Source of the DNA: Octopus sinensis
Lineage: Eukaryota
NCBI RefSeq assembly: GCF_006345805.1
Contig: NC_043004.1
Span: 99,572,001-99,636,000, forward strand
Reading direction: 5' to 3'
Length of the DNA: 64,000 nucleotides
Shown: piece after piece, positions 931 to 50,551 of the stretch
How the letters are laid out: each line of letters starts with the position of its first letter
Numbering within the stretch: the first letter of the stretch is position 1
Program-made: the position numbers and the translations under genes
Notes under the pieces: model-generated
Databases searched by the model: none
What the model was told of the DNA's origin: nothing
Seen by the model: only the letters and a program-made list of their open reading frames with translations

Positions 931-1092
931 GGGAGAGTTTACGAAAAAACAAAAGACGAAGACAGGTCGTGTACAAAACAAACAGATAACGTACAGGAAT
1001 AGAAAAAGTCGTTTACGTTTCGAGCCTACGCTCTTCTACAGAAAGGGACACAGAAAAAACAAGAAGAGAAAAAATGTGTGTAGTGGCTAATA
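931..1092 (-). mobile_element. Hammerhead-bearing short repeat, family A, copy 1
   Basis: Similar to 13657-13934, 43714-43877, 49099-49433 and 50363-50551. The 3' end (hammerhead sense) abuts (TA)n. Confidence 0.8.
1010..1045 (-). ncRNA. Minimal type I hammerhead motif (family A, variant core)
   Basis: Minus strand reads cttt-CTGTAGA-A-GAGC gtag GCTC-GAAAC-GTA-aacg, with one stem I mismatch. Confidence 0.55.
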
Positions 1093-1987
1093 GATAGAGA
1101 GAGAAAGAGAAAGAAAAATGAAGAGACTGGCAGAAGCAATATTAATACCAAATGGTAAAATATTAACTAACTGTCAGGTACTTACCATTGGAAAGGTAAA
1201 AAGAGACCAAAGTCACGTGATCTGGTGGTTTTTGCTGCGGGACTAGTGGTGATTATCTGCTGATGGTGATAGCTATGACATGCTTTTATGCACCAAAATA
1301 ACAATATCAGAGCTTTTCTCTCGATAAAATTCAGGAGTGTGTTCTAGCCTACCATACACTTCTATGTGGTGAATATTTGAACCTGTATACATACATATGG
1401 AAGAACAGTGTACGCACATATATATGTGTATATACGCATGTATGGTTGTTAGTTTGCATGCATTCATGTTTGTATGTAGGCATGTAAGTATGTATATAAC
1501 ATAGATTCTAAAGTTTATATTCCGGTTGTTGACATACATATTCTAGATGAAACAATCCGGCTGATTTTAATTAGATTCAAGTAAACACTGAAATAGAATA
1601 TCTATTTTAGACATACGTGCATTATATGCAATAGAGGTAGTGATGAGAAATAATAATTTAGATGTAGACGTCGATAAATTTGGTGGCGTTGAAATACAGA
1701 AATACTTTAAATTATAGAAAAACAATTCGAATACTATCAACAGGAAGCAATAACTGATAATTACTAGTGCTGGCATAATTAATTGATGAAGCTTTAAAAA
1801 ACTAATTAGAGACCACTCTGAGATGACAGAAAAAATATTTCCCAATAAAAATATTCATTTTTCAGGCAAATATGCGACACATCTGCGGATATGTTTAGGT
1901 ACTATTATGAACTCACCAGATCAGTCATCCCTTAGTCATGTTTCACAAACTAATTATTGATGCATTACTAAGTATATATATATATAT

Positions 1988-2320
1988 CGTGACACTCCGT
2001 CGGTTACGATGACGAAGGATCCAGTTGATCCGATCAACGGAACAGCCTGTTCGTGAAATTAACGTGCAAGTAGCTGAGCACTCCACAGACACATGTACCC
2101 TTAACGAGTGTGAAAAGGGTGGCCCTTCGAAATACTGGTACAACAGAAACAGTAAGAAAGGGTGAGAGTATGTTGTGGTGAAAGAGTGCAGTAGGGTTCG
2201 CCACCACCCTCCTGCCGGAGCCTCGTGGAGCTTAAGGTGTTTTCGCTCAAAAAACAATCACAATGCCGCGTGTGGGAATCGAAACAGCGATCCTATGACC
2301 GCGAGCCCGCTGCCCTAACC
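1988..2320 (-). mobile_element. tRNA-derived SINE, family 3
   Basis: Minus-strand head has ggttagggcagcgg and a B-box-like gtttcgattccc. Body is similar to 41818-42123, 45387-45680 and 42988-43310. Confidence 0.75.
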
Positions 2321-3319
2321 AGGCAAGTCAACCGATATTTGAACTCAGAACGTAAAGATGATCGCAAAACCGTTGTCTTAATGATTCTGCCAGCTCGCCA
2401 CCCGAGATACCTGTAACATAATGAGAACACGATTCAATTGATTACAAATCTGTCTTGGAATCTCTTCTTTGTCGATTTTTTAAAAAATGTTTTGAGCTAC
2501 AAGAATATTTTCGTCTTTAGTGTGTATTCTATGAATTGACAAAGTCCAAATTTTGCAATAAAAAAGACGTGTTTGGCGCAGTGAAACTGTTTTGGTTAGT
2601 TCAGCAATAAATCTTCCAGTTTCATACAATGTAGCATCATTGCTATTAATTTTCAAGTATATATTTCATATAAGTATTCTCAAGCATAAAATAGCTTCAG
2701 AGGTGGAAATTGTTATGAAAGATTGTGATTGGAATTAGGAGAAAACACATTCAAGATTATGGAATAAATATTCCGTTTTCCAAAATTTATTGTTTTTCAA
2801 ATTGGTAAGATTTATAGACTGTATAAATGCTTAGATATTTTTTTTTAAATTGCGCAATAGTGGGCATCAGCTGACGTAAGGTGATCCATTATATCTATCA
2901 TAAAAGACCTTGTAAATATCTTCAAGTCATGACCCACAGATACAGTAACATGAAACAGCGTCAAGAAGTCAATTTTAAGCATTAAACGCATACATTACCA
3001 AACTCATTCCAGTTGGGTAGAATTCACATGAAAATATTCGTTCATTGTTTGATTTCGCAAGTTCTAATAATCACTAGAGAGGAACTCTTCAGAGTTCTTT
3101 AAAAATATTTTTATATGGTATTTTCAGAGGGGGAAGGGCATTGCCATGAACATTTTACAGAGTCACAAGTGCACCAGTGAACTACTGACGGACGCCACAT
3201 GAAATCCTGGTATTGGAGTCCAACATGACGAAAAATCCATTCTTGCACCAAGAGCAAAAATGTTTCAATACGATAAACATTTTAAATATTTTTTAATCCA
3301 AGACCATGAAAGTTATAAA

Positions 3320-3400
3320 AATAATAATAATAATAATAATAATAATAATAATAATAATAATAATAATAATAATAATAATAATAATAATAATAACAACAAC
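3320..3400. repeat. (AAT)n microsatellite
   Basis: Direct reading. Confidence 0.95.
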
Positions 3401-48056: not shown

Positions 48057-48860
48057 CAGGGTGCAATTGGTAAATTGTCGCGAGATTAAATTTTTCATTT
48101 CGCGCTTGTGCATTGCTTTTTTTTTTTGGTGGGGGCGGGAATTTTGATACACATTATAGTAGGGTCAGTTGGGCACCATTTGTGAAAAATACAGAACAAT
48201 GACACAATTCACTCTGCCGGAAATTTGGAAACGATATGTGATACTGCTTCGCATTCGCGCTGGAATCTCCAGTATGAACATTTGGGTGTTTTGGTGTCAG
48301 TCTGAGGACAGTGCTGTTACCGAGTGTGATGAAAATCAAACCAGTCAACACCCATTTTGGAGTGATCACTAGTGAGGGCAACGTTATGCCTCCATTCGTC
48401 TTCCCACACAGCCTCAGACTCAACACAGAGGCCTACATCAAGTGCCTGGAGGAGGTTGTGCTGCCCAGGGTCAAGAGGGTGGCTGCTGGAAGACCTCATG
48501 TCTGGCAATAAAACTCTGCAGCAAGCAACACAAGGAGAACCCAGTCATGGCTGTCAGACAATTTCTGTGACCACATCACACCTAACATCTGCCCACCTAT
48601 CTCCCCAGACTCCCTCTCAACTGGTTATTATGTGTAGTGCACAGTTGAACCGAAAGATCAACAGCACTCCTTGTAACACCTTGTAACACCTTGTAACTGA
48701 AGGCACGGATTATGGCAGCATTCACCAACAAGGAGACCGTCCAGAAGAGTTGCAGGAGATTCCAAAGTCGTCTGGAGGCCGTGGTTGAAGCCAATGGCGA
48801 TTTTCTTGAATAGATCTACTCTTTAGTATTTCAAGATATTTTTATGTAATTTTGGTAAAT
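48057..48860 (+). mobile_element. Tc1/mariner-superfamily relic (maT-like), internally deleted
   Basis: Left end TA|CAGGGTG. Peptide fragments FGVITSEGNVMPPFVF, EEVVLPRVK, GRPHVWQ and a decayed PP.SPD motif. No right TIR seen. Confidence 0.75.
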
Positions 48861-48875
48861 ATATAGGGGCATATA

Positions 48876-49672
48876 GGGGCAGGCGTGGCTGTGTAGCATG
48901 AAGATTGCTTCCCAACCACATGGTTCCGGGTCCACTCTCTCTGCGTGGCACCTTGGGCAAGTGTCTTATACTTTAGCCTCAGGCCGACCAAAGCCTTGTG
49001 AGTGGTTTTGGTAGATGGAAACTAAAAGAAACCCGTCGTATATATATATATATATATATATATATATATATATATATATATAATATATATATATATATAC
49101 GGGAAGCTTTATGAAAATAGACAAAAGACGAAGGCAGGTTTACGGAAATAAACAAAAGACGAAGGCAGGTGGAATACAAACAAACAATTCTATTAGTATG
49201 GCGCTCAGGAAATATAAATAAAACAAGTCTTTAACGTTTCGAGCCTACGCTCTTCAACAGAAAGATACACAGAGAGAAAACACAGAAAGAAGGAGAGAAA
49301 AATATATGCGTGCAGAGACTAGCGAATCAACATGGCGATCTGATTTCGGCCAGAAGTCGAAGATCAAACGTGAGACGCAAGAGCGAAATTAGGGGAGATA
49401 ATGGGGTTAAATGAGCTCGCTCCAACATTAGAGTGTGTGTGTGTGTGTATGAATGTGTATGTGGGTGTGTGTGTGTATACTTGTCTTCCCTCAACCATCT
49501 CTTGACAACTGCTATTGGTGTGTTTACGTCCCCCGTAACAGCGTTTCGGCAAAAGAAACCGATAGAATAAATACTCGGCTTACAATGATTAAGTGCTTGG
49601 GTCGATTTGTTTGACTGAAGGCGGTGCTCCAGCGTGGCCGCAGTCAAATGACTGAAACAAGTAAAAGAATAA
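48876..49672 (+). mobile_element. SINE family 2 interrupted in its internal (TA)n tract
   Basis: 5' half 48876-49038 and 3' half ~49480-49672, with a family A element in between. Confidence 0.85.
49099..49433 (-). mobile_element. Hammerhead-bearing short repeat, family A, copy 5
   Basis: Motif 49228-49265(-) reads tcttt-CTGTTGA-A-GAGC gtag GCTC-GAAAC-GTT-aaaga. The terminal ~30 bp are tandemly duplicated. Confidence 0.8.
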
Positions 49673-50362
49673 AATAATATCTGTTAAAGTGTGATATGCG
49701 TGTGTTTGTTTGCCTATTTCTGAAAAGTGAACTCTGTGGGTAAATGAGAGTATTACACACGCTAGATCCTAAAGTAACCACGATCAACTATCGCCGAGTT
49801 TCAGTTTTATTTGCAAACATCTTCCAGTTTCGCCTGTTCACTCAAACCAAGTGTTTGCAACACTATTTTTTTTATTTACATACAAATTTATTATGATAAG
49901 TATAGGTTGAAATTTCATAACATGGTGGTGTAAATCTTTCAATACGTATTAATTAAAAGTAGCATTTTTGTGCGTATTTGACGAAGATTAAGTGCGTATC
50001 CTTCGTATGAATATTCTTAAGATCTGGAATGAGTGAGCATGTTATGGCGATCACATTAATAAAAGTTGGAATTCGTCAATATCTATCTTTATGTCAGTCT
50101 TTAGTTGGAGAGACCACTGCGATTTAGTTACTGTGCTTTTTTTCCCAAGGACGTGTTAAATATGTTTGTTAAACTTCATTGTAATTTTTATTTTGTATGT
50201 TTTATAGTCATTCTCATCAAAATTATAGTCACTTTAACACTATACTGATCAGCTTTACATTTTCTATATGTGATATATATGATACACACACACACATATA
50301 TATATATGTATATATATATATATATTATTATATATATATATATATATATATATATATATATA

Positions 50363-50551
50363 TGGCCATGATAGGTCGTTAGCCACTACACACAATTTTT
50401 CTCTCCTTGTTTTTTTCTGTGTCCCTTTCTGTAGAAGAGCGTAGGCTTGAAACGTAAAAGACTTTTTCTATTCCTGAGCGTTATACTAATATATCTGTTT
50501 GTTTTGTACACCACCTGTCATCGTCTTTTGTTTTTTTCGTAAACACTCCCT
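50363..50551 (+). mobile_element. Hammerhead-bearing short repeat, family A, copy 6
   Basis: Motif 50425-50460 reads cttt-CTGTAGA-A-GAGC gtag GCTT-GAAAC-GTA-aaag. (TA)n on both sides. Confidence 0.8.

Follow-up and report, generated by a model that had tools for sequence, protein, structure and literature searches.

Penelope-like elements (PLEs) carry minimal type I hammerhead ribozymes whose consensus has been given as CUGANGAH-G..C-GAAA-palindrome-UH, with a U-rich 5' flank (PMC4209133). Their pseudo-long terminal repeats (pLTRs) are reported at 193-218 bp, together with a 31-bp tail (PMC3846280). In the anole Poseidon element PAc (Anolis carolinensis), AT-rich DNA is nicked by the reverse transcriptase-endonuclease, copying starts 111-118 nt into the open reading frame (ORF) and the hammerhead cuts at +26 (PMC11167929). 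Hydra and Naiad PLEs are reported to target (TA)n, and for Neptune a bias towards microsatellites is mentioned (bioRxiv 2021.04.23.441226). The hammerhead of PLEs is described as slow, assisted by protein and dispensable for insertion in vitro (PMC4209133, PMC11167929, bioRxiv 2021.04.23.441226). The repeat presented here, family A, lies in a window of 64,000 nt (64 kb) of Octopus sinensis (contig NC_043004.1, forward-strand positions 99,572,001 to 99,636,000). Its copies are likely pLTR fragments of a TA-targeting PLE, and their hammerhead motif is distinguished by U in place of A at core position 6 (U6 instead of A6), a change that looks maintained throughout the family.

A BLAST search seeded with five copies and a profile built from the copies agree on six members of ~160-330 nt across 931-50550, as the earlier note on this sequence had claimed, and neither search disclosed a seventh in the window. 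In copy 1 (931..1092, minus strand; core CUGUAGA with C3 at 1041, cut site after 1014), stem I contains a mismatch and 12 nt are deleted, and the 3' end lies on (TA)6 at 919-930, 83 nt past the cut site. Copy 2 (13658..13934, minus strand; C3 at 13787, U6 at 13784, N7 = C at 13783, cut site after 13760) has an intact motif with a 5-bp stem I and is flanked by (CA)28 and (TA)25. Its hammerhead (13755..13792, minus strand) is composed of stem I UCUUU/AAAGA, CUGUNGA, an extra A, stem II with its loop (GAGC-GUAG-GCUC), GAAA and a loopless CG, followed by UA. The diverged copy (19150..~19353, plus strand, with an approximate 3' end; C3 at 19227) has the core CCGACGA, with C4 and A6, stem I GUUU/AAAC, a 3-nt loop II, and TA arrays on both sides. 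TA arrays also border copy 4 (43713..43876, plus strand; C3 at 43755, core CUGUAGA), whose hammerhead is predicted to be dead because G12U at 43775 removes the general base. The longest, copy 5 (49100..49432, minus strand; C3 at 49260, core CUGUUGA, U17), is located between a CA run and (TA)n and contains a 31-nt tandem duplication at 49108-49170, at its 3' end. Copy 6 (50363..50550, plus strand; C3 at 50429, core CUGUAGA), with TA arrays on both sides, carries the pair G10.1-U11.1 and the stem II strand GCUU instead of GCUC; its 5' end coincides with the common boundary, which lies about 65-80 nt ahead of C3. Over the aligned part from the core to the 3' end, the five close copies are 78-94% identical, and the diverged copy shares 58-62% with them (BLAST E=6e-8 against copy 5).

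Column-wise comparison places U6 in five of the six copies, while the extra A, the loopless ACGU and the GAGC strand on the 5' side of stem II are common to all. Position 7 reads A, C, C, A, U and A in window order, so that the core reported earlier for the five close copies as CUGU(A/C/U)GA was recovered as CUGU(A/C/A/U/A)GA. The complete core (C3 U4 G5 .. G8 A9, G12 A13 A14, A15.1-U16.1 and H17) is present in 4/6 copies, the exceptions being C4 in the diverged copy and G12U in copy 4. Of the features listed in the earlier note, the extra A, GAGC and ACGU hold in all six copies, and GCUC does not, given GCUU in copy 6. Among the close copies, G12U in copy 4, G10.1-U11.1 in copy 6, and the stem I mismatch with the 12-nt deletion in copy 1 had been overlooked. 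For the diverged copy, A6 and the exchange of CUUU/AAAG for GUUU/AAAC were correctly described, the change U4C and the 3-nt loop II were missed, and position 19223, given for this copy, is the start of stem I, with C3 at 19227. Because C4 is also present, this copy with A6 makes a poorer "canonical ancestor" than first stated.

A relaxed type I descriptor, allowing any base at position 6 and asking for a stem I of 4 bp or more, matches seven sites in the window, four of them family A, and none in 30 shuffles. Features characteristic of PLE hammerheads recur in the motif: an extra base between 9 and 10.1 and a palindromic 15.2-16.2 in all six copies, and G10.1-C11.1 in five (G-U in copy 6). Family A agrees with the consensus of PMC4209133 at every listed feature but A6, which belongs to the minimal type I definition and is replaced by U in 5/6 copies. 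The short stem I, the extra base, the G10.1-C11.1 pair, the loopless palindrome, the U-rich 5' flank and the mostly solitary, dispersed copies are all shared with PLE minimal type I hammerheads. By eye, the closest row in Fig. S3 of that source is the Neptune hammerhead of Acropora digitifera; a cephalopod row is absent from the excerpted alignment. The U6 motif is thus built like a PLE minimal hammerhead and is not a canonical member, because A6, one of the defining features, fails. The reading as a hammerhead and the expectation of dimer cleavage, both put forward in the earlier note, which named no element class, fit this published type. Rfam gives no hammerhead at family A, a result that is uninformative because Rfam also misses the canonical A6 neighbours in the window.

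All six 3' ends touch TA runs, and the last letters of the five close copies are CCC or CCCG(T), as had been noticed before. From cut site to 3' end the copies measure, in window order, 83, 102, about 105, 94, 133 and 94 nt; the 133 nt in copy 5 includes the 31-nt duplication (102 nt without it), and copy 6 is counted to its last C at 50550. For a single random end, the chance of falling within 6 nt of a TA run is p=0.012. The 5' ends are variable, 42 to 172 nt before C3, and three of the six lie on TA (p=3e-5), while two copies follow a CA run in a (CA)n-(TA)n order that is found 10 times in the window. Because of these 5' ends and this order, TA appears to be the target, and the pattern points to insertion into existing arrays rather than to a TA tail. 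All six copies span the predicted cut site, and therefore their templates would have been uncut there.

These ends compare well with PAc, in which arithmetic on the values of PMC11167929 gives 85-92 nt from cut to end, against 83-105 nt in family A. Both have 3' ends about 90 nt past the cut, an AT-rich target and copies that span the uncut site. They differ in that the ORF of PAc starts inside the hammerhead, whereas family A has no start codon after the motif, and in that PAc prefers ATT whereas family A occupies (TA)n. With Neptune, Hydra and Naiad PLEs, family A shares 5' truncation, insertion into (TA)n and no readable target-site duplication; Neptune or Hydra would be likelier sources than Naiad, because Naiads are without hammerheads. 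The fixed 3' junction to TA is therein a known PLE trait and no new feature, and pLTR pieces in TA microsatellites are ordinary PLE biology. The optional PLE tail of 30-40 bp is matched in length by the 31-nt duplication of copy 5 and by go-back joints in sequencing contigs, yet these are duplications and no extensions. Such joints, of about 30 nt and of the length of the PLE "tail", occur in one public run (X1) at the place equivalent to 49108-49170, and the duplication may recur. A 2026 repeat annotation of Octopus vulgaris lists Penelope families, and hammerheads do not appear in its main text as excerpted (PMC13282606).

To follow variation across the family, contigs from four public runs, each from a different study and with the species labels A, C, D and C, were aligned to 13650-13942, with copy 2 as reference, at 80% likeness, which recruited 19,211, 26,606, 7,732 and 4,005 contigs per run. 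At N7 (13783) all four bases are frequent (U 31-49%, A 22-24%, C 21-33%, G 8-12%), confirming the free variation at position 7 that had been proposed. At the adjacent position A6 (A>T at 13784) amounts to <2% of depth in all four runs, because the three A>T places counted in each run all sit at other positions. Mismatches at 13784 should show up just as readily as those at 13783, and variation is confined to the latter. The listed changes in the motif are mostly of CpG type (G12A 2-4%, C15.2U 3-8%, G16.2A 3-11%, loop G 4-10%). In run X1, variation of 10% or more affects 17/173 flank sites and, besides N7, 0/35 motif sites, with site 13814, private to the reference copy, excluded; the one-sided p is 0.04, or 0.15 when N7 is counted, and the sites are not independent. 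Depth over the core is 3.0-4.5x that of the 3' flank and 4.0-8.2x that of the 5' flank, and loose ends at the motif edges number in the hundreds; the core is therefore common to subfamilies with unalignable flanks. Beyond about 13870 depth drops 58-98-fold, so most copies are about 200 nt long or diverge there. Recruitment favours near-identical cores, and A6 relatives as diverged as the diverged copy would escape it. Run X10, RNA by guess only, contains none of the displayed joints and carries nothing on expression or splicing. U6 is thus family-wide and looks maintained rather than locally decayed. Of the two options left by the earlier note, a functional U6 variant or amplification after decay, the data across runs favour a maintained U6 core and disfavour plain amplification after decay, because position 7 is saturated and the neighbouring U6 is not.

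As the best explanation, and one held tentatively because it falls somewhat short of being probable, we propose that family A carries an attenuated PLE hammerhead, slowed but still working, with U6 fixed and cleavage assisted by a dimer or by protein. By analogy with PLE biochemistry, a protein with reverse transcriptase (RT) and GIY-YIG domains, supplied by a full-length master, would nick TA-rich DNA, and reverse transcription would start in uncut RNA about 90-100 nt past the hammerhead. By the same analogy, copying would usually halt within about 200 nt and leave 5'-truncated copies. Masters would have retained the hammerhead fold under selection after the change from A6 to U, with slow cleavage via a dimer through the ACGU palindrome, probably with the element's own protein. 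The dispersed copies in the window are likely inert by-products. Published precedents for slow or assisted cleavage include a natural A6C hammerhead that cleaves at 0.04-0.05/min in 3-10 mM Mg and at 0.3/min in Mn (PMC7151607) and the anole PLE hammerhead, which cleaves only with its protein (PMC11167929). Dimer cleavage is described in PMC6765202. The A6C case, from phage Bcep176 (PMC3088659, PMC7151607), resembles family A in having a pyrimidine at position 6. It differs as a single phage case with C6 that cleaves slowly and prefers Mn, whereas family A is a high-copy animal repeat with U6 in a minimal, dimer-type frame.

Several observations weigh against an attenuated, still cleaving hammerhead. 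A6 is found in 56/56 PLE hammerheads of Fig. S3 in PMC4209133, where the descriptor required it, and every single mutant of CUGA was low in activity in a mutational scan (PMC9901934). For four U6 copies, folding without tertiary terms places the dimer that could form the hammerhead 8-18 kcal/mol above its competitors. The exchange in stem I (C-G to G-C) is real, although it is the sole compensatory change among the six copies, and stem II has none. No parent ORF with RT plus GIY-YIG was detected by Pfam in 38 of the 231 candidate frames of the window, and the six copies are neither tandem nor inverted, the absence of tandems being the unfavourable part. Base shares in the contigs are summed contig depth without linkage, not copy counts. 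The 11 rows outside those displayed include an A>G place in every run and an A>C place in three of the runs, so that a minority of C6 or G6 is possible. Finally, the extra A, the loop A and N17, at which catalysis should tolerate change, are as invariant as the catalytic bases, and part of the conservation may therefore come from contig recruitment or from sequence-specific binding.

This last point leads to an alternative that we regard as unlikely on balance, in which the element has the same PLE origin and the U6 motif no longer cuts, being retained as a handle that the element's protein would recognise by its fold or its sequence. Hammerhead mutants had no effect on insertion in vitro, where uncut RNA was the main template (PMC11167929), Naiad PLEs have spread without hammerheads (bioRxiv 2021.04.23.441226), and the invariance of non-catalytic positions in the contigs is what such a handle would lead one to expect. 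On this account U6 may lock the motif off by pairing U4-G5-U6 with A15.1-C15.2-G16.2. Folding with 12-nt flanks gives the U6-A15.1 pair a probability of 0.80-0.97 in 3/4 copies and 0.41 in the fourth, and putting A at position 6 lowers the G5-C15.2 pair from 0.44-0.98 to 0.01-0.27. With 40-nt flanks, however, the helix is gone in 3/4 copies (0.00-0.04), and because of this loss the pairing is a lead only. Conservation of G5, G8, G12 and A9 with a free N7, as in the catalytic fold, also argues against a mere handle. Somewhat less likely again is a dead relic, in which a single A6U change in a successful master spread by hitch-hiking, with the conservation produced by core-matching recruitment and N7 as a hot spot. 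Recruitment at 80% likeness does favour near-identical cores, C7 lies in a CpG, decay of individual copies is plain (G12U, the stem I mismatch, G12A at 2-4%), and one metagenome locus described below has a U6 core that is the decayed partner of an A6 copy. It is opposed by the restriction of variation to N7, although 13784 is equally recruitable, by the absence of any flank site with three listed alternatives, and by the bases at N7 themselves: U7 reaches 31-49% without a matching listed G8A, which does not suit simple CpG decay, and transversions are required for A7 and G7. A PLE origin, which the attenuated hammerhead has in common with the handle and the relic, is highly probable.

Two other alternatives are more remote. 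It is improbable that family A is an independent non-autonomous element, similar to a retrozyme or a short interspersed element (SINE), of about 200 nt with two defined ends and mobilised in trans. The 58-98-fold drop in depth, the start of 2/6 copies near that boundary and the report of retrozymes as pLTR derivatives (bioRxiv 10.64898/2026.07.22.740005) would suit it, and animal non-LTR retrozymes are, like family A, short non-coding repeats that contain a type I hammerhead and are linked to PLE pLTRs (PMC7229834; bioRxiv 10.64898/2026.07.22.740005). Retrozymes, however, form tandem arrays and circular RNAs, whereas family A is solitary and shows no circular permutation. The other four copies start elsewhere (two shorter, two longer), no head-to-tail monomer joint occurs among the joints displayed from the four runs, and ARAGORN found no tRNA gene in the window, a search that would also miss decayed SINE heads. 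Assignment of family A to the retrozymes was rejected for the lack of tandem units among the six copies, and circular permutation because the 3' end does not recur in the 5' extensions. Least probable is an overlapping code that holds U6, with N7 as a four-fold third base (GUN in sense, UCN in antisense) or with UAG at 6-8 as a splice acceptor. Both frames exist and leave N7 as a free third base, the sequence upstream contains a pyrimidine tract, and in Drosophila Penelope an intron ends at helix I (PMC4209133). The frames are nevertheless short, without starts and bordered by tracts of variable length, their other third positions are invariant, and weak searches gave no protein match to either translation. 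The splice acceptor was rejected because UAG is not fixed, A7 amounting to just 22-24%.

Beyond the attenuated hammerhead of family A, a broader form of the idea is rather unlikely, namely a large and old octopus PLE clade whose core requires U6, either as a rewired U-turn that cleaves or as an off switch in which U4-G5-U6 is paired to the helix III palindrome and freed by the element's protein or a partner RNA. No natural U6 hammerhead family was found in the literature searched, a scope outside which lies Lunse et al. 2017, whose survey of variant PLE hammerheads is the largest and could include U6; the excerpts of PMC13481778, PMC11014351 and PMC6962438 likewise hold no natural U6 hammerhead. 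What is new, provisionally, is a U6 that is family-wide and seemingly maintained. Family A thus offers a natural experiment on whether these elements need ribozyme cutting. If U6 cleaves, the core consensus is wider than the descriptors and searches limited to CUGANGA miss high-copy families; if it is conserved and does not cleave, PLE hammerheads can serve a non-catalytic job.

Pattern scans for family A returned two matches in phage genes, and then none, in viral contigs and none in prokaryote genomes, and no copy of the family in the viral, metagenome or prokaryote collections. A scan of metagenomes for the U6 pattern gave 13 loci; family A is not among them, and the majority look like chance matches. 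By eye, 2/13 (L006 and L007) have both stems or a partner. At L006:3750-3870 an inverted hammerhead pair comprises one intact A6 member and one U6 member with a broken stem II; because of the broken stem and the intact inverted partner, this U6 core is taken as decay. L007:2466-2494, on an AT-rich metagenome contig, is a lone hammerhead-like U6 site with a 6-bp stem I and a 4-bp stem II. There is no second copy or ORF in that locus, and the site may be either a copy that has decayed or part of an independent U6 family; no such independent family was found in the viral, prokaryote and metagenome scans.

Other hammerheads of the window accompany copy 4, around which three hammerhead families are packed within 1.7 kb. 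Directly after the TA tail of this copy begins a head-to-head inverted pair of a second family (43933-44250), with hammerheads at 44051 (minus strand) and 44127 (plus strand), the canonical CUGAAGA (A6) and arms 94% identical. Its 3' ends face outward and meet TA at about 83-93 nt from the cut site, a geometry shared with family A, and the inverted arrangement is typical of PLEs (bioRxiv 2021.04.23.441226). The third, at 44370-45300, has 424-bp inverted arms that are 100% identical, with hammerheads at 44656 (minus strand) and 45014 (plus strand), the core CUGAUGA, a 7-bp stem I and a 4-bp helix III. Bordered by TA at either end, and with 52 bp of its 3' end repeated within the spacer (44795-44846), it looks like a very young PLE-type insertion.

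Fragments of long interspersed elements (LINEs) also occur next to TA arrays. A 5'-truncated LINE reverse transcriptase fragment (229-1035, minus strand), whose best named relative is from Argonauta hians (58% identical), in keeping with an octopod host, has its truncation point adjoining the TA run of copy 1. Another fragment of this LINE family (14209-14438) likewise starts at a TA run (14441), and a 122-bp piece of the first (508-629) recurs at 35078-35199, 97.5% identical, next to a TA array. Frames in 32631-33915 resemble a decayed mariner transposase, and those in 50573-51400 the end of a LINE with a restriction-like endonuclease, both with no Pfam match in the scan of 38 frames. An abundant SINE-like family is present at 5850-6272, 16562-16785, 17595-17994, 21832-21978, 35947-36155, 57735-57867, 60749-60982 and 62482-62612, partly as tandem 187-bp units; the SINE types of the window seem octopus-like. 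A second SINE-like family (22477-22957, 26307-26771, 38763-39174, 40643-40998, 43432-43577, and 48871-49038 with 49496-49677) carries an internal CA/TA microsatellite, and it is there, between the halves 48871-49038 and 49496-49677, that copy 5 is inserted.

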